This document shows positions 4,357-58,742 of a DNA stretch of 64,000 nucleotides, in pieces (positions within the stretch are counted from its first letter, which is position 1; every line of letters begins with the position of its first letter). The stretch comes from an uncultured virus (IMG/VR IMGVR_UViG_3300050821_001073) (lineage: Duplodnaviria > Heunggongvirae > Uroviricota > Caudoviricetes). Location of the stretch: the IMG/VR virus record IMGVR_UViG_3300050821_001073. The stretch is one strand, 5' to 3'. A program made the translations under genes and the position numbers. Below the pieces are notes generated by a model. It was not told where the DNA came from. It saw only the letters and a program-made list of their open reading frames with translations, and did no database searches.

Positions 4357-4886
4357 ATTTTCTAAATATCATTAAAAAAGCAGCACCATTCCTAGGAACA
4401 GCCGTATCCTTGGCCGTCCCGGGACCGCTAGGAGCTATGGCATCCAGTCTATTGACGAAGGCACTTGGACTTCCTGCCGATGCAGCTCATGAAGACATTG
4501 CGACTGCAATTGTAGGTATGACACCTGAGCAAGCCGTTGCATTGAAGACTGCTGAAGAGACTTTTGCTATGCAGATGAAGCAAATAGACATTGCATCAAT
4601 CGAAGCGTTAGCTAAGATGTCCTTTGACGACCGCGCAGGTGCCAGGACCATGTATGAGAACGTCAAGGGTTACACGGAGCCTGTACTGGCTTACACAGCC
4701 GTTGGTGGGTTCTTGACAGTGGTAATCCTCATGATGACTTTGCAGAACATTCCCGCATCAGCACATGATGCTCTGATGATTCTCCTCGGTGCGCTAAGTG
4801 CAACATTTAAAGACGTTTATGGGTTCTTTTTCGGTTCGAGTGCTGGATCTGAAGCTAAGAATCAACTACTAGCGGACAAGAAATAA
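4353..4886 (+). CDS. holin-like membrane protein (3TM/GTA-holin-like)
   Basis: DRAGAR motif, two C-terminal TMs, YGFFFGSS.GS..K terminus. Confidence 0.6.
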   Translation: MNFLNIIKKAAPFLGTAVSLAVPGPLGAMASSLLTKALGLPADAAHEDIATAIVGMTPEQAVALKTAEETFAMQMKQIDIASIEALAKMSFDDRAGARTMYENVKGYTEPVLAYTAVGGFLTVVILMMTLQNIPASAHDALMILLGALSATFKDVYGFFFGSSAGSEAKNQLLADKK

Positions 4887-5110
4887 TGAACATATTCACA
4901 ATGTACCCTATCTGGACCTGCATACTTTGGTGGTCCATAATCGCGCTTGCTGTAGCCATAGAGATTCTAGGGTTGTTTCGCTGGCATGGAGCAATTCCTT
5001 TGACATGGGTCATCAGGGACACCCTTCCTACATGGCTCCGTTGGACCATTATGGGCTTCTTGTTATACCACTTTGGAGTGCTAACCAATTCCACTCAGCC
5101 ACTGAAATAG
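4886..5110 (+). CDS. small 2-TM membrane protein
   Basis: two hydrophobic helices; TAATG coupling. Confidence 0.6.
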   Translation: MNIFTMYPIWTCILWWSIIALAVAIEILGLFRWHGAIPLTWVIRDTLPTWLRWTIMGFLLYHFGVLTNSTQPLK

Positions 5111-5120
5111 AGAGGACACA

Positions 5121-5774
5121 ATGGACCCTTGTTTCTATATTGGCATTTATAAAGACCAACTATTGGCGCGTAAGGCTATCACTAGCGTGCGCACCTTCTA
5201 CCCTGAAGCGCCCATTATCAGCATATCAGATGGGATTGAAGACAAGACGTATGAGTCATTTTGCCTTGATCACTCAGTGAGGTATTGGCAGGGAGAGCGA
5301 CTGAAGCTGCCGCAGTTTGCTGGTCAGTGGACAGAGCGATGGTTCAAAACTTGTGCCGAGAACTCAGATTCAGATGTTTTCATCAAGATTGATCCTGATA
5401 CTAGATGTTTTAGAAGGGCCAGTCTTTTGGACACCGATGTGTTTGGAAGGGTCATAGGACTGCCTAATTATCAAGTGTTCGGTCCAGCTTTCGGCATTAA
5501 GAGAGCTGCCGCCGTTAGAATTGTAGATTCAGGTCTTTTACGGGACTTCGAATATACAGCAGGAAGGTTCACATACACGAGATTCTTGGGAAAATCGTTG
5601 CGTCAAAATGAAACCCAAGACCTACAAGCTGTGTCCTCTCAGGACAAAATATTAGGAGACATTATCCTTAAGTTAAAGCTTACTGTGGGAGTCTGGAAAG
5701 AAGTGTCATTAAGAAGCTACCCGATGCCCCCCGTTCTAGACCAAGATTTAGCGTTTGTACACCCAGTCGGTTAG
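5121..5774 (+). CDS. putative GT-A fold glycosyltransferase
   Basis: SVRTFYP...I.SDG and FIKIDPDT (DxD) motifs. Confidence 0.55.
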   Translation: MDPCFYIGIYKDQLLARKAITSVRTFYPEAPIISISDGIEDKTYESFCLDHSVRYWQGERLKLPQFAGQWTERWFKTCAENSDSDVFIKIDPDTRCFRRASLLDTDVFGRVIGLPNYQVFGPAFGIKRAAAVRIVDSGLLRDFEYTAGRFTYTRFLGKSLRQNETQDLQAVSSQDKILGDIILKLKLTVGVWKEVSLRSYPMPPVLDQDLAFVHPVG

Positions 5775-5783
5775 AAAGGGACA

Positions 5784-6359
5784 ATGCCTACTATATCTGT
5801 AACCCAAAATTACCAGGACTTGGCAGGAAATCCATTGTCTAATGGCTTCTTGTTAATAAGACTACTGTCCGATGCCCAAAGCCCCGCAGGCCAGATTTGT
5901 AGTAGCACTGTACAACGTTTCACCCTGGATAGCGGAGGGAATACTACAGGGCTCCACCTGTGGCCGAATGCGTCGTTGAACACAGGGTCTGGCACTAATC
6001 TGTATCATTTTAGTGCATTTACGAGTCTTGGACAACTTGTTTGGCAAGGCACAATGACCATAGCTTCATCGTTGGTACTGGTTTCCATAGCAGTAACTCC
6101 TGCTAATGACACCATAGACTTAGTAACTATCTTGCAATACATTGCAACAGGTACATATTCAGACTCTAGTACACAGGACTTAACTCTATTAGTTACATGG
6201 AGTGGCTCTAATTTGTCCGGCATAGCTACGCTCTCTTCAACAGGACTGCTAACTCCCGTGGACGGTAACGAAAGTGGTGGACCACTAGTAACTATCACGG
6301 CCACACTTGGAAGTATATCTGGATCTACTGGTTTAGTCATTGATGATGGAAGCAGTTAA
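5784..6359 (+). CDS. Ig-like (Big_2) domain virion protein
   Basis: LVSIAVTPA...LQYIATGTYSDSSTQDLT..VTWS, typical Big_2 repeat. Confidence 0.8.
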   Translation: MPTISVTQNYQDLAGNPLSNGFLLIRLLSDAQSPAGQICSSTVQRFTLDSGGNTTGLHLWPNASLNTGSGTNLYHFSAFTSLGQLVWQGTMTIASSLVLVSIAVTPANDTIDLVTILQYIATGTYSDSSTQDLTLLVTWSGSNLSGIATLSSTGLLTPVDGNESGGPLVTITATLGSISGSTGLVIDDGSS

Positions 6360-7134: not shown

Positions 7135-9495
7135 TTAGTTGACTACGAATGTACTGTCAGGACTGGTAGTGGTGTTACCTTTAGCGTCCGTTGACACGAT
7201 CCTAAAGTGATAAGTTCCAGGATATTCAACGAGATTCCAATTGGTATAGTAAGAAAGTGGTGTATTCCAACCATATGCTGTAGTTGGGCCAGATTCGATG
7301 TGATTGGTACACTGTACGCTGGTAGTCCAGGCTATATGGACGTTTGTAGTGTTACTGCCCAATGGCGTATTGGCTGTGGTTATGTTAGAGATCACTGGTC
7401 CGACTGGTGGCATGGTTATTTGCCAGACGTGAACACCGGCGTGGACAGATTCGTCGCCGCTGACGCAGTAGATGTTGCCGTCAGTATAGGCTGCGCAATC
7501 CATGTTGAAGTAATTACCTGCGTATCCTGCCGTAGCTCCACCAGGATTCGCGGCAGCTCCGAACTGGATGAGGAATTTGCCCGTATGATCGTAAAGCACG
7601 GTTTGGTTCGAGAAGTTTGCATATTGTCCATTGTAATTCCATCCGTAGACCCCGAGCGAAGGTATTGCAATTGCGTTGTTGCCGTTCAACCCTCCAAAAG
7701 CATTTGCCTGAGGGTAATCTCCTTTGCCGTCTGGCGTGGGCTGTGAAGCAACGGGAGCCGCAAGCCAAGAATAGGCCGATGCACCTGCTGGTGCAACTCC
7801 AAAGTGAAACCCAGTGTCTGTCGAGCCTGACTGCGCATCGAAGAAGATGAATTGACTTAGGATCGGATCAAATTGCAATCCATAGGTAGCGAACTGTATC
7901 CCTGGATCGTGAGTCTTAACTGCCGGAAGGGTTGTTGCTAGGGTTGATGTACCCCAGGTTGGAATACCAGAGATGCAGCCTTGGAATGGCAGTATCGATG
8001 CTGTCTGTACGCCATTTGCTGGACCTGCAAGCACGGTTAGATTACCGTTGTTGTCTGGTTGAAACCTTGCTGCTGGATTATTGCCGCCTGCGGGAATCAA
8101 GAACTTCGCGTCAGTGCCATCGGTCGAAAGATAAGCGACTGCCCAACGACCAACGCCTGCGCTTCCATTACCACCGTACACGAACGAGTATGCCCCTGGA
8201 GTGCATCCAGCTAGATCGCGAACGTATAGCATCTGCGAGTAAACGATATTTTGATACTGTCCAGCTTTACTACTGTACAGGTAATCGAATGCAGGACCGG
8301 ACGCCCAGTTATTCACGAGTGACCAACCAGTTCCTGGAGCTAATCCAGCGAAGTTATACTTCCATTCTAGGAAGTTATAGCCGAAGATCCGAGAAGGTGA
8401 TTGCGGGTCTATGGCCGCATGTTGATTGTCACCTACCATGGAAATCTGCTCCAAGTAGGTTCCATCGCCAGCGTAATGCAGGATGCGGACATTGCCACCA
8501 TCTCCGACCCAGAACGTTCCATCTGTCTGAGCAGCTAGGAAAGCCCGAGGAAAGGTAAAGGCGTTCCTAATCGCCGAAAGGAACATGAACTTATTAGGCG
8601 TAACGGCAGGACCGTTTGAACGGTAACCACCAGGAAGGCCCAGAGTAAGCACTTTTGTTCCTGTAGGAGTAAAGCCAAATACTTGTTGAGACATTCCACC
8701 ATCGGCCACTAGAATGTTACCATTCGGTAGTGTCGCAACTGATAGCGGTGCAGTTAATGAAAGAGTAACTCCAGCTACGGGAGCAGAAGGTAGTCCGGTA
8801 AACTGCTGGACCACGGTTCCTGTGACTACCCAAAGGTTACCAGTAGCATCAAATGCCGATTGTCCAGGGGCGTTGACCACAATTGTTCCAAGTAAGCTTC
8901 CAGTGACCTTATCAAATAATGAGATATTGTTGAGTCCAGCATGTGAAACGGCTAGTAAGTTACCATTGAGTTGGACCGCTATGCCAGTAGCCTTGTTAGT
9001 CTTCTGTGCGGTGGGAGTCCAGTCGATGACTCTCAGGTATGTACGATCCGTAGGTGTAGGATTGACTGTCAGACCATTGGTAAATCCGAGCTGCGTACAA
9101 TCGGTTCTGAAAGCTTCTACAAATGAATAAGGTGTAGCATTATTATCGTCTGTATCGCCGGTTTGTGCCATGTAGATTGTGTTGCCGTCAGTGGCTACGT
9201 GTTCAAAACGAGTCTGAAAGTCGGGAACGGTGCAAGGTGAAGGAGTTTGTGGTTGACTGATCAAGAATGCAGCAGATCCGGGTAAGCCTTCGTTGTAGCC
9301 ATATGTAACATAGCAAGCAGCAGATGAGCAAGACATCTCGTGGAAGTCAAAGCCCTTCCAGATGTGTCCTTGATTGGTAAACGAGCTAGAGCTGTTACCA
9401 ATGACTCCGAGCCATTGGGCAGTGGGGTTTGTTTGAGCAACCGTAAGTTGCACCATTAAAACTAGCAATGGTAACAAAAGCAACGATCTCTTCAT
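7135..9495 (-). CDS. large secreted beta-propeller (NHL-like) protein with C-terminal FN3-like domain
   Basis: signal peptide; repeated blades (GIAV..NG.LLAVS, DATGNLWV, PNGNILVADGG, DGTFWVGDGGN.RI); C-terminal YHFRIVSTDAKGN. Confidence 0.7.
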   Translation of the reverse strand: MKRSLLLLPLLVLMVQLTVAQTNPTAQWLGVIGNSSSSFTNQGHIWKGFDFHEMSCSSAACYVTYGYNEGLPGSAAFLISQPQTPSPCTVPDFQTRFEHVATDGNTIYMAQTGDTDDNNATPYSFVEAFRTDCTQLGFTNGLTVNPTPTDRTYLRVIDWTPTAQKTNKATGIAVQLNGNLLAVSHAGLNNISLFDKVTGSLLGTIVVNAPGQSAFDATGNLWVVTGTVVQQFTGLPSAPVAGVTLSLTAPLSVATLPNGNILVADGGMSQQVFGFTPTGTKVLTLGLPGGYRSNGPAVTPNKFMFLSAIRNAFTFPRAFLAAQTDGTFWVGDGGNVRILHYAGDGTYLEQISMVGDNQHAAIDPQSPSRIFGYNFLEWKYNFAGLAPGTGWSLVNNWASGPAFDYLYSSKAGQYQNIVYSQMLYVRDLAGCTPGAYSFVYGGNGSAGVGRWAVAYLSTDGTDAKFLIPAGGNNPAARFQPDNNGNLTVLAGPANGVQTASILPFQGCISGIPTWGTSTLATTLPAVKTHDPGIQFATYGLQFDPILSQFIFFDAQSGSTDTGFHFGVAPAGASAYSWLAAPVASQPTPDGKGDYPQANAFGGLNGNNAIAIPSLGVYGWNYNGQYANFSNQTVLYDHTGKFLIQFGAAANPGGATAGYAGNYFNMDCAAYTDGNIYCVSGDESVHAGVHVWQITMPPVGPVISNITTANTPLGSNTTNVHIAWTTSVQCTNHIESGPTTAYGWNTPLSYYTNWNLVEYPGTYHFRIVSTDAKGNTTTSPDSTFVVN

Positions 9496-14541: not shown

Positions 14542-14694
14542 TCAAGCGGAAACTGTGAAATTATCGCTGTAGCTGCTTACATACCAAACCGTACTGCTAT
14601 GGTGCCAACCGCAGGAGCGGCTCGTATGCTCCTCAAGTGAGTAGCTTTTCACATAAACAGAAGACCAGCTCCGTGGTTGCGCGATTAGAATCAC
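14542..14694 (-). CDS. Ser/aromatic-rich micro-peptide family member (50 aa)
   Basis: GTG start: MILIAQPRSWSSVYVKSYSLEEHTSRSCGWHHSSTVWYVSSYSDNFTVSA; GTGA-coupled. Confidence 0.65.
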   Translation of the reverse strand: MILIAQPRSWSSVYVKSYSLEEHTSRSCGWHHSSTVWYVSSYSDNFTVSA

Positions 14695-15954: not shown

Positions 15955-16481
15955 GATACAATCTCCAGTAGCTCCCCAAGATCCAGCATCCGATAGCGAC
16001 GTTTGCGGCCTATTATCTCATAGCCCCAGTTCCCAAAATGGCCATCGATATCCTTCTGTTTCAAGAATTCAGCTATCTCCTTCTCGTAAGTCTCTATCTC
16101 TTTGCAGCCTTCGTCTATCACTTCATACCGCTGCATTACAGTCACTCCGGTTTCAAAGTTATAGTAATGGATCTTAGGCAGAAACCGTCGAAGGCCGCTA
16201 TAATGATTGTCCGCGAGAATGGTGTGGTAGGCTAGGATCTCGTTCTTAGTGTGCTTGACACAATACTTCCAGTCCTTGCCACTTAGGATGTGGGAATCTC
16301 CATAGATGCAAGGAAACTTAACCACGATAGGCAGCTTGTCTACACTATAGGCTCTACGGAACGCACCTTCACCGACTAGCTTTAGCTCCGGTGCCCAGTC
16401 GCCTACGGAAGCTATATCATGCAGGTGTGCTACATGCTTCTCTTTCATGTGCCTAAGGAGCTGATTGAGTGTTAACTTCAT
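15951..16481 (-). CDS. protein-kinase-like fold protein
   Basis: GEGAFR.AY (Gly loop), VVKF (Lys), NE (helix C), DGHFGN (catalytic loop), DLG; start MKLTL is ATGA-coupled. Confidence 0.7.
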   Translation of the reverse strand: MKLTLNQLLRHMKEKHVAHLHDIASVGDWAPELKLVGEGAFRRAYSVDKLPIVVKFPCIYGDSHILSGKDWKYCVKHTKNEILAYHTILADNHYSGLRRFLPKIHYYNFETGVTVMQRYEVIDEGCKEIETYEKEIAEFLKQKDIDGHFGNWGYEIIGRKRRYRMLDLGELLEIVS

Positions 16482-16684
16482 AATGATGCTCCGCAATTTG
16501 AACCTGTCATAGTGCTTATACCAGAGACTCCCGATATAGAACAAGCCATTGTACTGCATCTACCTCTTAGCTGGTGTTCCCAGGGTGCCACGTAACCTCT
16601 ATATCTGCGATATTCAACTGTCTCATAAAAAGCCATAGGAGTTATCCAGTTTCTATCGAGTAAAGCGCCTATTCTGAAAATCAT
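16478..16684 (-). CDS. probable micro-peptide family member (68 aa)
   Basis: MIFRIG...CSISGVSGISTMTGSNCGASL; ATGA-coupled to both primase and kinase. Confidence 0.5.
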   Translation of the reverse strand: MIFRIGALLDRNWITPMAFYETVEYRRYRGYVAPWEHQLRGRCSTMACSISGVSGISTMTGSNCGASL

Positions 16685-19121: not shown

Positions 19122-19268
19122 CTATTTGTACCTGTTCCAGATCCATGCGTTGTAAGTGTGCAACACGCCTCGTCTATTAGACGACTTAGAGCTAAAGGAA
19201 TCGTTTGCACTTGAGAAATAACAGATTCCAGACAGACTTCGGTAAGGGTGCCAAGGTACGAATATCAT
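19122..19268 (-). CDS. micro-peptide family, PWH subtype (48 aa)
   Basis: MIFVPWHPYRSLSGICYFSSANDSFSSKSSNRRGVLHTYNAWIWNRYK. Confidence 0.7.
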   Translation of the reverse strand: MIFVPWHPYRSLSGICYFSSANDSFSSKSSNRRGVLHTYNAWIWNRYK

Positions 19269-19432
19269 AAATATCCCCTCCAGCCTCTATATAACCACAA
19301 TTCCGGTCTTCGACCGGCTGTCAATGAAGCAAAGCATTCATACGATTCGGAATTATAGCATAAAAACCCACCAACGCTAAGTTTACCGCTAGCTGATGCT
19401 CCAAATTTGCTGAATAGAGGTATGAATATCAT
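19265..19432 (-). CDS. micro-peptide family member (55 aa)
   Basis: MIFIPLFSKFGASASGKLSVGGFLCYNSESYECFASLTAGRRPELWLYRGWRGYL; AAGGAG RBS. Confidence 0.7.
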   Translation of the reverse strand: MIFIPLFSKFGASASGKLSVGGFLCYNSESYECFASLTAGRRPELWLYRGWRGYL

Positions 19433-19462
19433 GATTTCTCCTTGCTCTTGAGTCAACCTATT

Positions 19463-19591
19463 TTAGTTCCAGAGCCACGATATGAAGGATTGGTTCATGC
19501 CCCGTGGCCGAGAGTATGTCTGAGTAGAGCTAGATGAGACGTAGCTACCTCTGTACATGGATCGGCGAAGATGCCAAGGTGTAAGTATCAT
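19463..19591 (-). CDS. micro-peptide family, PWH subtype (42 aa)
   Basis: MILTPWHLRRSMYRGSYVSSSSTQTYSRPRGMNQSFISWLWN. Confidence 0.7.
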   Translation of the reverse strand: MILTPWHLRRSMYRGSYVSSSSTQTYSRPRGMNQSFISWLWN

Positions 19592-19743
19592 ACTTGCTTC
19601 CAGTACCAGGGTAGGCTTGAGTTAATCGATCCTGGTATCCATGATGATCTTGAGTAATGGACAACAGAAATAGAGCAGTAGCAGTAGTCCCAACCCATCA
19701 TACCACTATAGCTTCGTTTTATGTGCCATGGTGCGAAGATCAT
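19588..19743 (-). CDS. micro-peptide family, PWH subtype (51 aa)
   Basis: MIFAPWHIKRSYSGMMGWDYCYCSISVVHYSRSSWIPGSINSSLPWYWKQV; ATGA-coupled to helicase. Confidence 0.7.
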   Translation of the reverse strand: MIFAPWHIKRSYSGMMGWDYCYCSISVVHYSRSSWIPGSINSSLPWYWKQV

Positions 19744-23347: not shown

Positions 23348-23494
23348 TTATTTCCAGAGCCATGGGAGCATTGTGTTGACTCCATTGCTCATACTAGAGG
23401 ATAAAGACCTCCAACTATTGCTACTCGAATAGAATCTCTCAGTATAGACCCCGCCACTATTGCTTCTGAATATGTGCCAAGGGCAAAAGATCAC
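23348..23494 (-). CDS. micro-peptide family, PWH subtype (48 aa)
   Basis: GTG start: MIFCPWHIFRSNSGGVYTERFYSSSNSWRSLSSSMSNGVNTMLPWLWK; GTGA-coupled to HNH gene. Confidence 0.7.
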   Translation of the reverse strand: MIFCPWHIFRSNSGGVYTERFYSSSNSWRSLSSSMSNGVNTMLPWLWK

Positions 23495-23751
23495 GACGGT
23501 TTCCATCCTTTTATACGGTTGAACTTTGCCAGACCGTTTGCGCCTTCGCTGCCTACTTGTAGCGTTAGGTGCCCCGAATGAAGTCCGGAATGGCAGCACC
23601 CGCACAGGCTGATGAGGTTTTCCAAGGTGTCTGGACCGCCTTGGCTCTTGTAAATGATGTGATGCGGCTGCACTCCCCTATACCCGCAGTGCCTACATTT
23701 AAAAGCATCCCGCAGGAACACAGCCGATCTAGTTTTAGCGTCTAGGGCCAT
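23491..23751 (-). CDS. HNH endonuclease
   Basis: RD..KCRHCG...HHI..KSQGG....NL..LC..CH. Confidence 0.9.
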   Translation of the reverse strand: MALDAKTRSAVFLRDAFKCRHCGYRGVQPHHIIYKSQGGPDTLENLISLCGCCHSGLHSGHLTLQVGSEGANGLAKFNRIKGWKPS

Positions 23752-23835
23752 AATAGCCCGATAACGATGTAACAAGCTACAATGAACAATTCGGCTATGG
23801 CAACGACATAAAGTGCCGTAACTACTCTACTCATT

Positions 23836-25998: not shown

Positions 25999-26154
25999 TT
26001 ATGTGTCCTCTCCACATATACTAGAAGCATAGGCTCCTGCCCAACTCCGATTCCAGCCAGTATGATGGCTGCTCCGTGTAAGCTCCCACCTGCCGTAGTA
26101 TCTCCACATTGCCGCAGAGTGAGCGTCAAAAGCTGCTGTTTGAAACAGTATCAT
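25999..26154 (-). CDS. micro-peptide family member (51 aa)
   Basis: MILFQTAAFDAHSAAMWRYYGRWELTRSSHHTGWNRSWAGAYASSICGEDT. Confidence 0.7.
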   Translation of the reverse strand: MILFQTAAFDAHSAAMWRYYGRWELTRSSHHTGWNRSWAGAYASSICGEDT

Positions 26155-28443: not shown

Positions 28444-28641
28444 TTACCAAGCTCCTGACCAAGACGTTTGACAGAAATACTTAGCGCCAGTGAGTCGGTC
28501 TATGTGCGTTCCTGTGTGCGAGCACATATATCCAGCACACCTTGAGGCACCCGCAACCTGGACCTTCCAGGGCACCGCGCTTGTAAAGAATTGTCCGCTA
28601 GATGCCGACGCAGCAGGAGTAAGAAACGTCCTAAGAATCAT
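28444..28641 (-). CDS. micro-peptide family member (65 aa)
   Basis: MILRTFLTPAASASSGQFFTSAV...SRCAGYMCSHTG...YFCQTSWSGAW. Confidence 0.7.
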   Translation of the reverse strand: MILRTFLTPAASASSGQFFTSAVPWKVQVAGASRCAGYMCSHTGTHIDRLTGAKYFCQTSWSGAW

Positions 28642-29797
28642 TTCCTATCCTCAATACATCCCCAACTGGAGGAGTTTCGATGCTGTGCAAACCTAGAATC
28701 GCCCATAGTATCGGGCAATCGCTAGTTTGCGGAAACGTGCCTAATCCATCTGTAAGGTATACGATACCATCCAGAAGCAGTTCGTTGCACTTCTCTACTG
28801 CTGGCCGAAAGTCAGTTCCGCCCCCGCCATGTAGTGTCTGCGGGATGTCTTCCCCAGGTTCCACCACTTGATGGACGTCTGCATCTGCGACGATTAGCGT
28901 TACTTCCATGCCCGCGATGTCAATAATACTCTTCAATTCGGCCAGGAACGTTCCGATCATCGTTCCATCCACGGAGCCCGAAGTGTCGATTACGACTCCG
29001 ATATTGGCCTTAGGCTGACGCTTCCATCCTGGAAGGCCAGGGTATCTACGGCTAATACGATTCCAAGTGTGTTCGTCATCTCGGACCTTGGCCGAACAAA
29101 ACTGTGCCAGAACTTCGCGCCAATTGACAGTTGGTGCCATAGCCGCTTCGACAAACCTATCCATGCTCTTAGGCTGACATCCACGGCACTTGGATATGAT
29201 GTCTTTCCAGTTCTGCTCTGTCAACCCGCTCTTGTCCTGCCTGCCACCTGAACGGTCGATAGGGTTATTGCCTTCACCGTCGCCATCTTCGCCTTCGGTG
29301 CCAGGGTCACGAACGTCATTAGCCAGATGTCCGTACTTCTTGCGCATCTTCTTTTCTTTCTTACAGACATCGGCGTAGAGTTCTTCTACGGTCTTATTTT
29401 CCATATCCGGCGCAATACTCCACTCGGGAAGGTAGATACCATCCTGAAATAGAATAGAGTTAACGGACATGTCACAAGCAATGTTCCAAAGCTCAGCGTC
29501 CTTGCCTACACCACGCGGGCAGTGTAACAAGGCACAATGCAGTACTTCATGAGCCAAGATAGCCATAGCCAAATCGGTGGTTAACGCTTCAGTGAACGGT
29601 TCGTAGTAGAACAAGTGCGTTCCGTCTACGGCCATCGTGTGAATAGGACGTTCCCGCTGTTCGTTGTGCTTGTCATCCTTGGGTATAGCGACCAACCGCA
29701 GATGTAGCAACAACGTGGCGAACCAAGGCATACGGAGCATCATTTGGGCCTTCGCTACTTCGATCTTTTGTGCCGCTGCGTTCATGGGCGCATTCAT
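28631..29797 (-). CDS. DUF2201-type metallopeptidase-like + VWA domain protein
   Basis: TMAVDG, LAHEVLH (HExxH), WNIACD..VN; DTSGS MIDAS, GGGGTDF, YLTDG. Confidence 0.9.
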   Translation of the reverse strand: MNAPMNAAAQKIEVAKAQMMLRMPWFATLLLHLRLVAIPKDDKHNEQRERPIHTMAVDGTHLFYYEPFTEALTTDLAMAILAHEVLHCALLHCPRGVGKDAELWNIACDMSVNSILFQDGIYLPEWSIAPDMENKTVEELYADVCKKEKKMRKKYGHLANDVRDPGTEGEDGDGEGNNPIDRSGGRQDKSGLTEQNWKDIISKCRGCQPKSMDRFVEAAMAPTVNWREVLAQFCSAKVRDDEHTWNRISRRYPGLPGWKRQPKANIGVVIDTSGSVDGTMIGTFLAELKSIIDIAGMEVTLIVADADVHQVVEPGEDIPQTLHGGGGTDFRPAVEKCNELLLDGIVYLTDGLGTFPQTSDCPILWAILGLHSIETPPVGDVLRIGNDS

Positions 29798-30665: not shown

Positions 30666-31649
30666 TTAGCTCGCGAACAGTGCCTTATGTGATTTGATCC
30701 ATTTGCGGATCTCAGGGCACTTTGCAACATCCAGTTTCTCGCGGATGTCTCGGATGTACAGCAAAGCGAATTCGCTAGGCATGCGTGCCATGAAGACCAT
30801 CAAGCTCTCTTGGGTCTGACGGCTATACTGACTGAGGTTCGTGGTAAGGGCGTAACGTGTAGCAGGATCTACTGGGACTTCGGCGGTATCTTGATTATCG
30901 ATTATATGCTGTATTGATGGCAAGGCTCGTGACAGGGCCAAATACGCCGCAAACTCTGTCGATGGGCCTTCCCCAATCGTTCCTTCGAGCATCGATCTTT
31001 CGATGTTAGCTGACACTTTCAGACCTAGGATGTAGTTACAAGACTCCCATGACCTAGGCGAAGCGAATGCACCGTCTACCGGAATGACAGCTTGTGACAG
31101 AAGGTCAGGACGGAACCGAAGGAAACCGATAATATCAGCGGATATTCCCTTTTCCATAGCCCAGTTTTCCCATCCCTTAACGTCTGGTTCGACCTGAATA
31201 ATAGTCATACGGTTGCGCAAAGGCGCTCCGATAGCCTGATAGACCGATTTGTCACGGGCATTGTTGCCTGTAAGAACAACTTGCCATCCATCGCCAAGAC
31301 CCATATCTGAGCCCTTTTCCTGCCAAACGATGTGGTGAGCGGCTACCTGAACGTCCTTGGGTGCGCTGGTGAGTTCATCCAACAGGAGAACGCCACGTCC
31401 CTCTTTAGGCAACGGACTAGCCCAAACGGTGCGGCCATTCTGGACGGTGGGAATGCCGCGAAGATCAACGGCTTCGCAGGTAGGCAGAGCCAGATTCAGG
31501 ATCTCACGATCATTGACCTTAGCGGCATGAGCCACAGCCGAAGTCTTTCCAGCGCCTGGAGGACCGAGTAGGATGACAGTGTGTTTTTCGTCGCGTGCGA
31601 AGATCTGCGTAAGCATCTCCACGGTGTCAGATATGTTCAAAGTGTGCAT
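30666..31649 (-). CDS. MoxR-like AAA+ ATPase (usual partner of DUF2201/VWA proteins)
   Basis: GPPGAGKT, DLRGIP, LLLDEL, TGN, L.NR, SPRSW. Confidence 0.9.
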   Translation of the reverse strand: MHTLNISDTVEMLTQIFARDEKHTVILLGPPGAGKTSAVAHAAKVNDREILNLALPTCEAVDLRGIPTVQNGRTVWASPLPKEGRGVLLLDELTSAPKDVQVAAHHIVWQEKGSDMGLGDGWQVVLTGNNARDKSVYQAIGAPLRNRMTIIQVEPDVKGWENWAMEKGISADIIGFLRFRPDLLSQAVIPVDGAFASPRSWESCNYILGLKVSANIERSMLEGTIGEGPSTEFAAYLALSRALPSIQHIIDNQDTAEVPVDPATRYALTTNLSQYSRQTQESLMVFMARMPSEFALLYIRDIREKLDVAKCPEIRKWIKSHKALFAS

Positions 31650-32055
31650 GTTAGAACCTCTCCACATAAGTTACATTGCTATTTAAATCAATAACATCAT
31701 ACGATGAACCGCTGGTGCAATAATAGTTAAGCTCCAGTTTAAGTATCCCGTTCTGTTTATACGTGTGATGGCTCTCTACATTAACACAAGTCACGACTTT
31801 ACCGTTCTTGTAGGTTATCTCGTAAGTCATTTTGTTACTCCTAGTTTGAGTTAGTATATCCATAGATGCAATGCCTGGATTGCATCTAAAGACTTACTAA
31901 GCAATGGTTAGATTGCTGTTAGTGAATGCTTTTCGTTAAATGCTTTTAACGCATCCATTTGTGCGTCATAGAACACTTGCCGACCGGCTACTTCTATCAG
32001 CGACAATAAGTGCTCCACTAGTTTTTGGTAGGTTTCGTAAGTGCTCATAAATCTC

Positions 32056-32427
32056 CTATTTCTTCTTAGCCTTGGGCATCGGGTTATTCCATGGAATGAT
32101 GTCCGTAACGCAATGCGTGTTGACCAGATAACCGTCTGGCATAGGCTCCCAGTTGTGGACTTCGGCCTTACCGAAAAGGACCGTAGTGAATTCGCCGGAA
32201 TCCTTAACGAAGATCCCCTTGTCGAGCTTGACCCAAGTGTCTTGGCTACCAAGTCCGGCAGGATAGATGCCGACAACTTGTCCAATAGCGTGATAGGTGA
32301 CGGTGCGTATAAATACGTACGAACCGATCTTAACGATACCTGCGATACCGAGCAATGCAGAATCCGTTTCCGGATCGATGGGGTTAGTGGTTTCAGTATT
32401 ATCCGAGTTCAATGGAATTTTTGCCAT
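32056..32427 (-). CDS. conserved phage protein (IRTVTYH...DSG.F...EP family, DUF6948-like); candidate partner of the Ser-rich peptides
   Basis: IGSYVFIRTVTYHAIG...VKDSGEF...L......WEPMP...VN...V.D..PW...P; AGGAG RBS; family assignment from memory. Confidence 0.65.
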   Translation of the reverse strand: MAKIPLNSDNTETTNPIDPETDSALLGIAGIVKIGSYVFIRTVTYHAIGQVVGIYPAGLGSQDTWVKLDKGIFVKDSGEFTTVLFGKAEVHNWEPMPDGYLVNTHCVTDIIPWNNPMPKAKKK

Positions 32428-32586
32428 ATGTTTGTTTCTCCTATTTAGAATATTAGCACCTGATGGACGCTATTTCAATATTACTTCTGTCCTATTTCTA
32501 ATTACTAGTTTTTACGATCTGTTGCCAGTTTACTTATTTGTGCTCGGTTTGTCAAGTCCTAAAGTTTCAAAGTCACCGTAAAGTTA

Positions 32587-32855
32587 GTACCATCTGAGCT
32601 TCGCCGAAACACTTTAGAATCAGTACCATCCAGCGCCGCCCCAAAACAGTACCACCTGCCGATTGCCGAAACTTCCACGATTTGGTGCTCACCCGATCTG
32701 GGGCGGATTTTGGATCCTAGGTACTCCCGTACTCGTAACTAAGGCAAAAACCTTAGGTACAGTACAAAAGTACTTATATTAGAAAACTCTCATTAGAACT
32801 TTCTCATTAAAATTCTTTAATAGTACTTCCGTACTCAAAGTGAGTACAATCGTAC
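32587..32855. repeat. GTAC-rich non-coding repeat cluster (origin/terminus candidate)
   Basis: 12 GTAC tetramers in ~270 bp flanking an AT-rich core. Confidence 0.6.
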
Positions 32856-35800
32856 TCAAATTGAGAACAGGACAAACCTCCGTCCTGTCCGTTACAGGAC
32901 TTTTGTGTAAATTAAAATTTTATCATCTGACTTTTTTCCTGGCCGCGAATTTTTACTATCTGGCTTTTTGTCCAGAGTAAATTTTACCAAAGGCACTTTT
33001 GTCGGGAGAATCCTGGAATATCTGACTCCAAAGCGTTCGCCGTACGGTTCGACCTATAGTCTTCAGTGATAGCGGCGTGCTCAGCATCGATCCATGTCTG
33101 CTTTTGCGCTGGTGTAAGGAACGGCCATGCGTCACGTGTCCCTGTGTTCATCTAGTGCCTTTCGTTGGTTGCGTGTAGCTGGTGTAGACTGCCCTTATGA
33201 GCGAGTCCAGTTCGTTCAACAGCCCCGCACTAGTCGCAGCTTGTATAAAGCCTTGCATGACGTTCCTTGCCCCGTTGCGAGTGCCTGTATAGCGTCCGGC
33301 GCAATAACTCCACGTGGCGACTGCTAGGACGGCCAATAGTTCGTATTGCGTTCTGTCCATTTGAACCTCCAAGTAGAGACACGAATACGCCAGCGCACTG
33401 CGGCTAGCATAGTCATGCCCCGAATTTGAGAATCAAAGAAGTTAATTGGTTATTGTCCAACCTGCCTTATTGAGTCGCCACACTTGCGCGGGGTACTCGG
33501 ATAGGTCTATGGCCTTGCTCATCTTTGAGATGGCCTTGATGACGGACTTAAGAGTCCGATGGGCTCGCTCATAGGACGGAAAACCAATTGTGCATGAACC
33601 TGCAAAGACTAGGTAGAATTTCATATAAAAACCTCTGAGGACGCATCGTGTACGCGTCCTCTGTTATACCGTTTCGGTTTGCATTTCAGACACGATCAAT
33701 AACACCGCGTCTTGTTGATTTTCGACTTTTATAGCGCGGGCCAACTTGCGAACTGTGCCAACTGCATCGGCTCGTGCTAGAATCTCTATCGTGAGTGACT
33801 TCTCTTGTTGGTTTTTGTAGTACCCTGTACTGAACTGAACCGTGAAGCTATCGAACTTATCTTGCACCAGTGCCTCAATAGCTTCGCGGTTCACGTCTTC
33901 GGTATAGATCTTGTACAGTCTCATGGTTTCGTCCGATAGAACTTAATGATGAACAAACCGACACTTGCCGTTGTCCATCCGTTAGTGTGAAGCTTCTCAG
34001 CTTCTTTGAGTCCCTTTAGAGTGCTGGTATCTACGCTTTTGTACTCAATTTTCGCCATTAGAATGTCGCCACACCAAACTCATTAGCGAGTGCAAGGGCT
34101 TCGCTTAGAGTCAGTTGTCCGGATGAGTATCCATGGCGGATAAGCTTGAGAGGTGAAGTGCTGGACAACAGGAGCGTACCGTTGTCAGAGAATGCATCGA
34201 AGTAAGCAAAGTCGTTCTCACGTATAACCATTGTCGTTTCCTTTGGCCTTTGGCCGGTTTGATTGGTTTACTGTTGCGAGTGTAGCTCACTCGGAATGAG
34301 TTGTCAAGCCTTATTTTCCAGTATCCATCCAAGACTTAATACCGGAATAAGTGTATTTGATGCCAAGTCGCTTACACGTGGCCTTGAATGCTGGACTATC
34401 TTTGTTGTAAGAACCTTTCACATAAGCAGCCGTCATGCGATTTACTACAATTGGAACGTCTAAAGTGTTTGTCCAAGCATATCGATCCGGATACTTGGTC
34501 ACTGCAAGGGCCAACTCCTCAGCGTACACTTGCCAGAATTTATCGAACCTATCCATTCGCTCGGCAGCTAACCTTGCTTCACTATTGGGTGCGCCGACTG
34601 CTATAGATCCATGTTCAAGATGATTCATTGTCTCAACTCCTGTTCAGAGTAGTCACTCTGCTCAGACGGATTGGAGGTTATCCGCCTTGACCGATTGACT
34701 AGCCATTCTTCTCGACTGGTGTCCCCTTAGCTGCAAGCTTCTTATTGCGCCGTGCCGTTGTGTTTATTCCAAAGTCTTTAAGAGACTCTCCGCGTTTCAA
34801 CTTGGGCAGTGTGCTGAATGTGCCCGCTAAAGTATCGATACTGCTAGGTCCTACGTATTCAGGTTCCTGTCTGTTATTTCGTGCCATGTTAGTTCATCCT
34901 CTCTGGATTGGTTTCTTCGGTTGCGATTATTGCCCAATAGGTCATTGGGCGGAAGTTATCGTCGTTCCTGAACTGTGCCTTAAGTGTTTCAAGGCTAATG
35001 TCTCTGATGTCTTTCAGTAGTCTGTCGAGCCCTTGGTTGTTCATTGTCTTATTCTCCCTTGTTAAGAGTAGTATCGGCAGTTCGCCGCAAGACTTTAGCG
35101 TAATTCTTCTGGCACAATCGGCCATTTCATTCTGACTTCATCACGTTCGTTTGTACCTACTATCACCATGCGCAACTCGGAGTTGATGTAGCCGGATTCA
35201 ATGCCGTACCAGCGTGAGCCCGCTCCCGTGATAAGTTCTAGAGCAACCATATCACTCTTAATGCAACTCTTGTGCGCATTAGCCGGATGAATCTTACTTC
35301 CAATCACTTCTAATCTAAATGCTCCCAAGTTATTGTGAATAAGTACTGTAGTTGGTACGTAACGCGGATTCATGTCCATTTTGTCCTTTTTCCTCTGGTA
35401 TGAGACTAGCTCATATGGTTTGTTAGGTCAAGTTACTTTAGTGACTCCAAGGGCTGTGAATCCAGACTCCCTTAGACTCTTTACCGCAACGGAAACAAGC
35501 TGTCCAGATACGGCCATTACTGTGAACTTTCATCCGGTTGCCATGGCGACAGAAGGTGCGCCGTACGAGATTCAAAAAGCTATTGACTAGGTTCACTTGG
35601 TACGCTCCTGATTCACTAATGCCTGATCTTCAAGGCGCAACTGGTATTCATCATCTGCGTTTAGCTCATCCTGCTCAGCGTCTAACGCTTCCCATAGACG
35701 TATCGTAGTGTCCATGCGTTCTTCGGCAGTTGCTTTCTTTGCCCGCTCAGCAAGTACGGCGCGTGATTCAGGTATGATATACATTATTTACTCCCGTTCA

Positions 35801-41110: not shown

Positions 41111-41614
41111 GGCATATCTGATATGTTGCATGACATACTGTATGACAATGTAACTGGCACGTGGCGCGTAATCGCCATAAACCCTGACACCAACAAACGG
41201 TTAGAATGGGACTTCCAAACTGAACAACAGGCACTCGCGTTTCTGCGCGAGCTACACAAATGGGTACAAAGAGACTCAACAGGGCAAGAGATGAGAGAAG
41301 ATGGCAATTAGCTCTCCAATTGTCATTAGTATAGCACAGTTCTAAACCCCTGTCAATAGGGTAAACACCTTAGTACATAAGTACTCAAAGGACCTAATGA
41401 AACTAACAGAAGCTCAGAGACACTTGGTATTTCGTGCATTCGCTCACTTGCTCAGGGCGGATAAGTCGCTCACTCTAGAAGAGAAGCTACAGCTAATGGA
41501 TATAGTGTCTAAGTTCTTCGACATTGACTTAGACCCTGAACCAACTGACGAAAAATGATAACAAATAATGACAGAATGACCTAAAAGCGTATACGGTGCA
41601 CCGGATGAAGCCCT

Positions 41615-41652: not shown

Positions 41653-41794
41653 ATTACAATAGGCGAGAGGTAACAATCAAATGATATTCATAGTTGCACT
41701 GATGTTCATAGCAATAGCTTTCATTAGCTTTGCAATAGTGACCGACACCTTCAACCGTTAACCAACCGGCGCATCGCGCCAAAGGAAACATGAC

Positions 41795-42061: not shown

Positions 42062-43006
42062 AGTCTGGCTTGCGACTGCCGATAACAAACTTAACAGGAG
42101 ATTAAAACAATGATTCTAGCATTAGTAATCGGATTTTTCGTATACAGCGTTTTTGTCGGAATCGCCGCTGTACTCGGAGTGTCACTATGATCAAGCGACT
42201 ATTCAACTCATTCAAGACACCCGATGTGTTGCCGGAAACGGCTCGTATTCAAGAGCTACTGGCACTAGGTTACACCGATGGTACACCGTTGCTATCCCGA
42301 TACCTCAAAACGATTGGCATGCACACACTCGGGGTTCTAGCTCAGAGCAAGGACATCATGGTATCACGGGCAGCTAACGTCGCCATTGTGGCGCGACTGA
42401 CAGGGAGAGAATTATGACACTGAAATTGCGCAGTGAATCGCATCCAGATTACGCGTTGGTACGAGTTTGGACATATCTATGGTTCGCCTATAAAGACAAC
42501 GGCTCTGTGCCCAAAGACGTGAGCGATGCTATCTCACTGATACAGGAAAGAATGACCCCATGACCCTTGCTCAACTCATTAGCTTAGCAGAGCAACGACA
42601 GAAGACAGACGCCTATGATGTGGGCGAAGCCATGGACGGTTGGTACATGGTACGCGTTGTCCGAGTGGCTCGTAAGAAGACTTGGACTAACTCGGTCCTC
42701 TTCTACATCAACGGTCGGCAGGTTAAGCGCCATGAGCTATCAGCGGCCATGGAACAAGACAAGCCTGTATCATTGACATGGCCATGAAGCGAGTAACCTA
42801 TACGCTGACAGAGTCATCCAGTCTCAGCATGGACTATGCCCGTTTGCTCACGTTCTACTGTCAGGAGTGCAACGTCGCAACTCATGCTAATCACCTGGAC
42901 GTGCCCCGAGTGCTGTTATGTCTTAGCTGTCAGAAGAATGACACAAAAGGATAACAATTTGTGCCGGATTGACACGAATACGCATCGTGTACGCTGGCTA
43001 AATGGT

Positions 43007-51118: not shown

Positions 51119-51262
51119 ATGGTCATATCAGTAATAGGAATTAGTCGCAGTTCTCTATGGAAAAGATCCGTAAATGAAGGATGGTACTGTAGCCAAAGTA
51201 CCTATTATGCAGGGTCAGCTTGCGGTAGAGCCCATTACAAAAGTTTCTGTGGAGGGCTGTGA
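51119..51262 (+). CDS. micro-peptide family member (47 aa)
   Basis: MVISVIGISRSSLWKRSVNEGWYCSQSTYYAGSACGRAHYKSFCGGL. Confidence 0.75.
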   Translation: MVISVIGISRSSLWKRSVNEGWYCSQSTYYAGSACGRAHYKSFCGGL

Positions 51263-51346
51263 TGGTCATTCTTCAGCCTTCAACTTACGTCGGGCTGTGT
51301 GTCAGTGTCCCATAACTGCAATTCCAGTCGATGTGGGAGGCTATGA
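51262..51346 (+). pseudogene. frameshifted, shortened micro-peptide unit
   Basis: starts MVIL but stops after 17 aa; the family-type end ...SHNCNSSRCGRL lies in another frame. Confidence 0.55.
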
Positions 51347-51492
51347 TGGTTCTAATGGCTCGCATTTGGAAGACATTACAGTATAACCCCTATAGACCTT
51401 CCAGGCCGTTTAGTTCATGGTCAGAAGGTTGGGTTAGCAGCGCAAGTTCGACGTATAGGCAGGCCGACTTCAGTAACTGTGGAGGTTGGTAA
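51343..51492 (+). CDS. micro-peptide family member (49 aa)
   Basis: MMVLMARIWKTLQYNPYRPSRPFSSWSEGWVSSASSTYRQADFSNCGGW. Confidence 0.75.
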   Translation: MMVLMARIWKTLQYNPYRPSRPFSSWSEGWVSSASSTYRQADFSNCGGW

Positions 51493-51659
51493 TGGTCCTG
51501 GCGAGAACCAACCCATACGCTGATTCCTATAGCGACCGTTATATAGGCTCGTTTTCGGGCAACGGCAGCAGCGGACACGGAACCATGGCGAGTTATATTC
51601 AAGGTTGGAGAATATCATATAGTCATAGTGAGAATTTAAGCTTCTCTTCAATGATTTAA
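51492..51659 (+). CDS. micro-peptide family member (55 aa)
   Basis: MVLARTNPYADSYSDRYIGSFSGNGSSGHGTMASYIQGWRISYSHSENLSFSSMI. Confidence 0.7.
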   Translation: MVLARTNPYADSYSDRYIGSFSGNGSSGHGTMASYIQGWRISYSHSENLSFSSMI

Positions 51660-58097: not shown

Positions 58098-58742
58098 ATG
58101 TTCATATATCTCATCACAAACCGAGTTAATGGGAAGGTTTACGTCGGTCAACACGCCGGTACGAACCTGAAGCGATACCTACGCGCTGATTACACGCGCT
58201 CTTTGAAGTCTAAGACCAACACTCGTAAACCCCATCTTTACAATGCTTTGCGTAAATATGGAGAATCGGCCTTTGTAATTGAGCCGTTGATTCAATTGGA
58301 TTTACAGGATAAGAGCCTCACGAAGTTATTAACCGACCGCCTTGAGACATATTTCATAAAAGTCATGAACTCTCAAGATAAGGCGCTTGGTTATAACGTT
58401 GCAGCAGGCGGTGGAGGGTCTTTCGGGTACACGAGAGAGTTTACTCCTGAATGGCGTGCCAAACTCGCAGAAGCGGGAAGAGGTAGAAAGCATTCCGAAG
58501 AAACAAAAGCCAAGATGAGCAAAGCGGGCACCGGAATCCCTAAGACCAAAGAGCACCGAGAGAAATTAAGCATCGCAAAACTGGGCAAAAAGATGGGTAC
58601 ACGTACTCCCGAGCAGAGAGTGAACATGTCACGGGCACATAAAGGACACGAAGTATCTCCCGAAACTAGGGAAAAGATTCGGCAGGCTAATCTGGCCTTC
58701 CAAGAAAGAAAACGTAAAATGAAATTGGAGGGTACTGCATGA
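58098..58742 (+). CDS. free-standing GIY-YIG homing endonuclease with NUMOD3 repeats
   Basis: FIYLITN.VNGKVYVGQ, GYN...GG, HSEETKAKMS repeats. Confidence 0.92.
   Translation: MFIYLITNRVNGKVYVGQHAGTNLKRYLRADYTRSLKSKTNTRKPHLYNALRKYGESAFVIEPLIQLDLQDKSLTKLLTDRLETYFIKVMNSQDKALGYNVAAGGGGSFGYTREFTPEWRAKLAEAGRGRKHSEETKAKMSKAGTGIPKTKEHREKLSIAKLGKKMGTRTPEQRVNMSRAHKGHEVSPETREKIRQANLAFQERKRKMKLEGTA

Follow-up and report, generated by a model that had tools for sequence, protein, structure and literature searches.

The 64,000-nucleotide (nt) stretch of DNA considered here, referred to as the window, is taken from an uncultured tailed phage (Caudoviricetes; IMG/VR record IMGVR_UViG_3300050821_001073) with a contig of about 92 kb (92,131 nt), of which the window and 22.5 kb past its right end were inspected, about 5.6 kb lying outside the inspected part. 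Besides a family A DNA polymerase (PolA), a primase-helicase, RecA and an SU10-type portal protein, the window encodes on its minus strand a protein of 123 amino acids (aa), which is the subject of this analysis and which sequence profiles place, as a divergent member, in an unnamed phage family almost confined to metagenomes. The protein is predicted to form an Sm/LSm-type barrel. In relatives the barrel gene is paired with a small gene for a serine-alternating micro-protein; in the window it is detached from such a partner, linked to a MoxR gene and accompanied by many small peptide genes, here called MIL micro-genes, an unusual state of the pair.

The open reading frame (ORF) of 123 codons starts with ATG, is preceded at a distance of 10 nt by AGGAG and contains, according to the ORF list of the window, YVFIRTVTYHAIG, DSGEF, EPMP and VNTHCVTDIIPW, so that all the motifs quoted for it in a preliminary description of this DNA are present. 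Its N-terminus, MAKIPLN, is identical in both close homologs, which share 70% (E 8e-52) and 68% (E 2.8e-46) identity with the protein, indicating that the ORF is a real gene and that the start is correctly assigned. Two other sequences, G001 and L004, duplicate portions of this phage without any difference and are unusable as comparison. The gene is the sole copy of its family in the window and in the 22.5 kb past its right end. It had been called the first gene of the replication arm, which is right insofar as it is the first gene behind a regulatory gap and wrong insofar as genes on the same strand run upstream to about 41.3 kb.

The gap of about 530 nt (Table 1) holds a sigma70-like promoter (32555-32527, 10/12 matches) and four copies of GTAC-N4-GTAC at 32721, 32762, 32823 and 32844 (range 32721-32855). 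This motif is found five times in the window where 0.7 occurrences are expected, a number reached in none of 100 shuffles, and the sites are probably operators of a phage regulator. The fifth site (41373-41384) lies in the divergent early intergenic region. Another motif, AGTACCAYC, occurs three times between 32586 and 32672. On the other side of the gene the slot of the canonical repeat peptide is held by a helical ORF of 46 aa, which has no counterpart in L005, the one further locus of the close subfamily, and there follow a 70-aa ORF, a gene for a MoxR-like AAA+ ATPase, two small ORFs and a gene for a DUF2201 protein with putative metallopeptidase and VWA-like domains, so that a metallopeptidase domain with the HExxH motif lies within the block of the 123-aa gene. 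A terminator-like hairpin (30656-30633) stands between the AAA gene and the next ORF. As had been noticed before, no Ser-rich peptide adjoins the gene on either side. In L005 the MoxR gene lies 84 nt downstream of the Sm-like gene.

A phage family with a predicted Sm-type fold

To which family does the 123-aa protein belong? A HMMER search of 1.84 billion representatives with a profile of three close sequences, the 123-aa protein and its two close homologs, yielded 142 cluster representatives at E<=1e-3 (the 123-aa protein included), three of them at <=1e-10, the best of the 141 others having E 2.8e-11 and the common core covering query residues 30-120. Against the family profile, which contains the ORF of the window itself, this ORF scores 3.4e-32. 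The consensus of the resulting 144-sequence alignment reads FIRTVTxHxxGxV...AxWVADSGRF...EVEP...IVDxxPWxHxLP, and columns conserved in at least 90% of the sequences are, in the numbering of the 123-aa protein, G35, R41, T44, G49, L68, G88, E94, D109, W113 and P118. The consensus residue is readable in the 123-aa protein at R41, T44, G49, L68, E94, D109, W113 and P118, residue 88 being Ala. Other resources gave nothing for the 123-aa protein: no Pfam family at E<=10, the LSM and Hfq models included, a single row of no use in PHROGs (E 0.26) and no tblastn match in 50,697 deposited phage records. The 144 family members have no meaningful Pfam match and no match in PHROGs, the family profile finds no PDB sequence at E<=1, and a locus search with alignment A1 found nothing in viral contigs or genome contigs.

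AlphaFold2 applied to three sequences reached a predicted local distance difference test score (pLDDT) of 32.7, and the model made from 144 sequences was taken instead (mean pLDDT 82.6). It comprises two short helices and seven strands, in agreement with the beta-rich, probably Sm/SH3-like protein envisaged in the preliminary description, and a Foldseek comparison with the PDB lists in its top rows exclusively Sm/LSm proteins (probability 0.87-1.00, best E 1.4e-2). By this model the family has a predicted Sm/LSm-type barrel fold, sharing with yeast SmF (1n9r), archaeal SmAP1 (1i8f/1loj), the LSm1-7 subunits and Hfq an N-terminal helix and, after it, a sheet of five strands with a strong bend. 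Unlike these proteins, which it does not resemble in sequence by the Pfam LSM and Hfq models or among PDB sequences, the family is encoded by phages, and its gene has a separate micro-protein gene as partner. The family motifs RTVTYH, ADSGRF, EVEP and D..PW.H.LP differ from the known Sm1 and Sm2 motifs. In three members (P0004, P0011 and P0017) the Sm-like domain is tandemly duplicated within one polypeptide of about 210 aa; on the modeled fold, such two-domain members would suit an oligomeric ring.

The protein had also been described as DUF6948-like, which applies to architecture and fold and not to membership. None of the 144 family members matches the DUF6948 model PF22253 at E<=0.01, this model never matches the RTVTYH gene in 45 phage records, and hhalign of the family against a true DUF6948 protein gives a probability of 0.2, so that membership of the 123-aa protein in DUF6948 is ruled out by Pfam, the 144-member scan and hhalign. 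Structurally, DUF6948 proteins are weak neighbors, found at ranks 7, 11 and 12 in BFVD (E 1.5e-2 to 3.1e-2) and in a structure row of the protein atlas with template modeling (TM) scores of 0.61/0.55. DUF6948 modules resemble those of the RTVTYH family in that a small Sm-like gene is followed by an overlapping repeat micro-ORF, and differ in that the partner repeat is Gly-alternating and acidic, whereas that of the RTVTYH family is Ser-alternating and basic. Both kinds stand side by side in one locus (L093, 245-2057), where an RTVTYH-type gene with its own S-x repeat ORF is followed by a 195-aa gene and, about 650 nt behind the RTVTYH gene, by a DUF6948 (PF22253) gene with an overlapping 96-aa (GYGDG)n ORF.

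The repeat micro-gene partner in relatives

What accompanies the barrel gene elsewhere was read from two samples of loci, both of which were chosen by motifs conserved in the barrel protein and represent canonical members of the family and not the family as a whole. The first consists of 84 loci, namely 80 IMG/VR loci (the best 80 of 189 relatives, canonical sub-alignment) and four metagenome loci; the second, from another subgroup, of 80 loci obtained with a DNA pattern back-translated from W[VI]ADTGRF, which matched more than 121 stretches. In 79 of the 84 loci a Ser-alternating micro-ORF is paired with the barrel gene. It starts between -20 and +60 nt from the barrel stop codon in 58 loci, 24 of these at offset -3 (ATGA overlap), lies immediately upstream of the barrel gene in 16, is clear by eye in four (a split gene in L009, a degenerate type in L015, and L025 and L057 at contig ends) and stands 600 nt downstream, past an inserted HNH gene, in one (L026). 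Of the remaining five loci one is doubtful (L068), three have no micro-ORF (L041, L042 and L074) and one is not evaluable (L035). In the second subgroup all 80 loci contain the barrel gene and 69 a same-strand low-complexity ORF rich in Ser and Gly within 700 nt; none was found in the other 11, two of which offer less than 100 nt of flank. Both samples thus bear out the pairing with a hydrophobic-leader, SRSWSGS-type micro-ORF that the preliminary description had attributed to the family, and homologs do associate with Ser-rich micro-ORFs.

In canonical members the micro-gene is usually translationally coupled to the barrel gene. The head of its product is hydrophobic and roughly 9-14 residues long (median 14 as called), often beginning with MI or MN since the start overlaps a TGA stop codon; in the tail Ser takes every other position and Arg, Trp or Gly the positions between. 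In one locus (L007) the head MNKLIINYCGR is present in seven copies that differ synonymously. In 58 repeat ORFs Ser is encoded by TCN 1141 times and by AGY 371 times, and this use of both codon families indicates that the conserved entity is the peptide. The codon of the other repeat residue is nearly always NGG (TGG 458; AGG and CGG 573 of 608 Arg codons; GGG 451 of 496 Gly codons), a constraint beyond what amino-acid selection alone explains. The NGG family is the sole one in which every choice of first base specifies Arg, Gly or Trp without giving a stop codon. In the same 58 ORFs (from L010-L089) AGG was counted 485 times and CGG 88 times, and TCC is nearly missing among the Ser codons (5/1512).

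No fused form of barrel and tail was seen in the family; the N-terminal extensions of P0025, P0103 and P0120, which were considered as such, proved to come from the upstream repeat read in other frames. Nor is there a constant third gene, the 106 neighbor ORFs at canonical loci including some for methylases, ERF, PD-(D/E)XK nucleases, YopX and HNH proteins and, once and in one locus, a radical-SAM protein. With 189 IMG/VR relatives and more than 121 matching stretches the pair is widespread in uncultured phages and almost missing from deposited genomes, a canonical member finding one of the 50,697 deposited phage records. Literature searches on DUF6948, on phage Sm-like and Hfq-like proteins and on the repeat strings returned no paper on the pair, and the module of barrel and repeat micro-protein is, as far as these searches reach, undescribed in print.

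MIL micro-genes of the window

The window contains 31 convincing MIL micro-genes, an automatic filter having returned 32, about four of them spurious, and none in the 22.5 kb of the structural arm past the right end; of the 33 leader-plus-Ser-rich peptides reported earlier the kind is confirmed and the exact number is not. They are of uniform size (42-68 aa), and trail seven genes of the replication arm, namely PolA, VWA, two helicases, a nuclease, HNH and a 148-aa gene (Table 1). Most start with ATGAT, overlapping or abutting the preceding stop codon in ATGA or TAATG junctions, and have sites resembling ribosome-binding sites (RBS). Conserved head residues are encoded by synonymous codons (I by ATC/ATA, P by CCA/CCT, H by CAC/CAT, R by CGA/AGA, S by AGC/TCC/AGT), and one copy encodes a CPYG motif as TGC CCC TAT GGG, another as TGT CCT TAT GGC; on these sequence patterns the MIL ORFs are translated genes. 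No tRNA genes and no Rfam families were found, so that the arrays are not known RNA genes. Compared with the long genes of the phage, the peptides are enriched in W (3.0-fold), S (3.0-fold), Y (2.3-fold), C (2.2-fold) and R (1.65-fold), and E, K and D are at 0.34-0.42 of their level there. The spacing S-x-S occurs 76 times as against 53.3+-6.0 in shuffled sequences, none of 2000 shuffles reaching 76. A perfect sigma70 consensus (TTGACA-17-TATAAT, 12/12) at 27934-27906 on the minus strand sits in the 3' end of one MIL ORF and precedes the last ORF of cluster B (ATG 27888).

Table 1. The 123-aa gene, its neighbors and the MIL micro-genes in the window
Feature	Position	Strand	Remarks
Single MIL-type micro-gene	14542..14694	minus	GTG start, VILIAQPRSWSS...; behind 148-aa gene, GTGA overlap
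Single MIL-type micro-gene	16478..16684	minus	behind primase-helicase gene, ATGA overlap
MIL cluster C, 4 ORFs	19122..19743	minus	three with MI[FL]xPWHxxRS heads; first overlaps helicase stop via ATGA
Single MIL-type micro-gene	23348..23494	minus	VIFCPWHIFRS...LPWLWK; behind HNH gene, GTGA overlap
Single MIL micro-gene	25999..26154	minus	behind PD-(D/E)XK nuclease gene
MIL cluster B, 5 ORFs, 51-65 aa	27712..28641	minus	first overlaps VWA gene end by 11 nt, ends SWSGAW
DUF2201 protein, putative metallopeptidase and VWA-like domains	28631..29797	minus	DUF2201_N 4e-31, DUF2201 7.6e-17
MoxR-like AAA+ ATPase	30666..31667	minus	Pfam AAA_5
46-aa helical ORF	31908..32048	minus	immediately downstream of 123-aa gene, not Ser-rich; AGGAG before ATG at 32048
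123-aa protein gene, predicted Sm-like barrel	32056..32427	minus	divergent member of unnamed phage 'RTVTYH...ADSGRF' family
Non-coding regulatory gap	32428..32955	minus	upstream of 123-aa gene
MIL cluster A, 15 tandem ORFs, 43-61 aa	44577..47498	minus	first overlaps PolA stop via ATGA
MIL cluster D, 3 micro-genes	51119..51659	plus	MV[IL] heads, tails end CGGL or CGGW

Elsewhere in the window there are genes of homing-endonuclease type at 930-1883 (HNH-repeat), 23491-23775 (HNH, followed by an MIL-type micro-ORF) and 58098-58742 (GIY-YIG with NUMOD3). Two plus-strand ORFs of 26 codons (41681-41761 and 42110-42190), located where the rightward early region begins and furnished with RBS-like sites, encode purely hydrophobic, membrane-like peptides (MIFIVALMFIAIAF... 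and MILALVIGFFVYSV...).

Evidence on a proposed pairing of one barrel protein with many micro-proteins

How could the barrel protein and the MIL peptides be connected? One contig, L096, which was recovered through an alignment of the MoxR protein, carries in order an AAA gene (49% identity to that of the window), a VWA gene (40%), a family member (profile E 1.4e-12; 27% identical to the 123-aa protein, E 2e-7) and repeat micro-ORFs with the heads MLPGLM, MTLPGWMTAQS and MRLPWWMFGRS and tails of the form (x-A-S)n. Upstream of the AAA gene there is a further array, of five to six micro-ORFs, bringing the total around one barrel gene to at least ten. L096 demonstrates that a single barrel gene accompanied by at least ten micro-ORFs in two arrays exists in a relative of the gene block. 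The contig is GC-rich, its arrays (4816-5850 and 8428-8962) flank the MoxR, VWA and Sm-like block and show period-3 repeats, (x-Ala-Ser)n tails, SGDQ ends and CAATGA junctions, and the last copy is truncated at the contig end. In the window, the VWA gene is followed immediately by five MIL ORFs (cluster B). MIL peptides share with the canonical partners the residue palette, the hydrophobic MI- head and the logic of coupling, MI- being also the commonest start among canonical heads (23/81). Furthermore, cluster B has the heads MILRTF and MILKTV, which resemble MNAAIL[RK]TGF of the second subgroup, and the MI[FL]xPWHxxRS heads of cluster C resemble MRLPWWMFGRS of L096; both likenesses concern short motifs.

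It may be envisaged that the barrel protein, probably assembled into a ring by analogy with other Sm proteins, docks the head of a micro-protein and would in this way be provided with a detachable tail that is basic, aromatic and disordered. Nucleic acid, and most likely RNA, would be the target of such a complex during the early or replication phase. In the lineage of the window the barrel gene would have lost its adjacent partner, standing now before the MoxR AAA+/VWA-metallopeptidase block, and the partner class would have diversified into about 31 MIL micro-genes, made by translational coupling behind the seven genes. Eukaryotic Sm proteins with Arg-Gly tails, such as SmB, SmD1, SmD3 and LSm4, and Hfq with its disordered C-terminal domain offer a parallel, as they too combine an Sm barrel with a low-complexity, Arg-rich disordered tail; in contrast to these proteins, the barrel would here receive its tail as a second polypeptide, attached by way of a hydrophobic head and, in the window, available in up to about 31 alternatives. 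On gene order and sequence, that one barrel protein serves many MIL peptides is plausible, at a little below an even chance, and the barrel protein would most likely work with at least the five micro-proteins encoded behind the VWA gene, possibly with all of them. Distinctly less likely is the further-reaching proposal that a single Sm-fold adaptor and about 31 hypervariable micro-proteins organize RNA or replication proteins through interchangeable Ser/Trp/Tyr/Arg 'sticker-spacer' tails, as a condensate or scaffold, with the MoxR/VWA pair loading or trimming the heads.

Several observations weigh against a connection between the barrel protein and the MIL peptides. Neither the window nor L005 has a repeat micro-ORF adjacent to the barrel gene. 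In the 123-aa protein FVKDSGEF replaces W[VI]AD[ST]GRF, whereby the canonical Arg of ADSGRF is gone, a KDSGEF-type change that is common to both close homologs, GEF being found also in P0099 and P0136. The tails of MIL peptides contain 18% Ser compared with roughly half in canonical tails and no strict repeats, S..S at spacing 4 is depleted (30 versus 51), and the window has no hexamer repeats (four matches versus 3.06 expected); the depletion and the lack of hexamers imply that the MIL products are not canonical repeat proteins. A profile built from 25 MIL peptides matched only itself among 27 candidates and found no relative elsewhere, so that nothing beyond composition and short head motifs ties the MIL peptides to the canonical partners. 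In metagenome-assembled genomes (MAGs) of Acidobacteriota the MoxR-VWA blocks lack the barrel gene and arrays within 6 kb in all six cases. Finally, in 45 whole phage records canonical repeat DNA lies on one strand and, among the matches listed, forms one cluster or occurs in two places 1.2 kb apart (G036), which makes the scattered arrangement of the window atypical.

An alternative is that the barrel protein lost its peptide partner in this lineage and works without the MIL peptides, whether on its own, binding RNA or serving as a small adaptor, or in support of the MoxR/VWA chaperone, the MIL peptides being an unrelated family with an evolution of its own. For this speaks that MoxR adjoins the barrel gene in the window and in L005, both devoid of a neighboring peptide, that the MoxR-VWA block adjoins it in L096 as well, that the ADSGRF motif is altered and the tails are not canonical repeats, and that canonical phages hold the peptide gene in cis. 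MoxR AAA+/VWA pairs follow the Sm-like gene in the window and L005 and precede one in L096. However, this association is lineage-specific, as none of the 106 canonical neighbors is MoxR or VWA and the six MAG loci do without the barrel gene, which indicates that the modules are mutually independent; moreover, L096 retains repeat micro-ORFs behind its MoxR-linked barrel gene as well as the second array upstream, and MIL peptides resemble canonical partners in composition, Ser spacing and heads. A barrel protein working without MIL peptides is the leading rival reading and less likely than not. Sm-fold proteins typically bind RNA, and together with the almost invariable NGG codon this could suggest that the true partner is not a peptide and that the barrel binds a repeat RNA (or DNA), the (UCN-NGG)n transcript, and in the window, where hexamers are missing, other RNA targets with no tie to MIL. 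Such a view is improbable given that Ser is kept through TCN and AGY codons, which alters the RNA but not the peptide, that the start codon opening the Ser frame is in every case coupled to the barrel gene, that heads are conserved through synonymous changes and that the other reading frames vary by locus (GL, GA, GR, VE).

The conserved heads and hypervariable tails of many paralogs, together with the HExxH metallopeptidase domain in the gene block, could also be read as leader and core of precursors of ribosomally synthesized and post-translationally modified peptides (RiPPs), with the barrel as the leader-recognition protein and perhaps the DUF2201 metallopeptidase as maturation enzyme. Known leader-recognition elements of RiPPs have a winged-helix fold. 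The predicted fold of the barrel is Sm-like, the tails are low-complexity repeats and not Cys/Ser/Thr cores between cleavage motifs, no modifying enzyme recurs among the 106 canonical neighbors, the radical-SAM gene being confined to its one locus, and MoxR and VWA genes are missing from canonical loci, so that a RiPP-like system appears very improbable. An equally slight chance is given to the MIL ORFs being non-functional, that is, chance frames in spacers or frames translated merely to couple the expression of neighbors, in which case there would be no peptide library. Their odd composition and codon-position pattern (A1 0.34, T1 0.30 and G2 0.33; G1 0.35 in the long genes) and the want of homologs elsewhere, including a protein atlas score of at most 0.86 for one MIL peptide, would fit such frames; head residues varying only synonymously among paralogs, the uniform length, the RBS-like sites with overlapping start/stop junctions and the limitation of the ORFs to the replication and early region speak against them.

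The six Acidobacteriota MAG loci have the same MoxR gene, which fits an acidobacterial host range. Tunturi 3 belongs to the cultured Acidobacteriota phages to which the phage of the window is akin (PMC11924767). This Tunturiibacter phage, Tunturi_3, is the nearest isolate (portal 65% and PolA 43% identical), and in this one genome a profile search found no family member and no MIL arrays were seen, a joint absence that speaks for a link between the two elements. Its unannotated gaps (78676-80337, 86142-86898 and 87707-88419 in L001/L002) contain no MIL-type ORFs by the filter. Searches with PolA or the L096 barrel protein as the sole query retrieved nothing apart from the record of each. The kinship with cultured Acidobacteriota phages may eventually supply a host for a test. 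The roughly 31 micro-genes amount to about 5.7 kb, or roughly 6% of the 92-kb genome, and if one barrel protein indeed serves many micro-proteins, this would be a new viral way to diversify an RNA- or protein-organizing factor.

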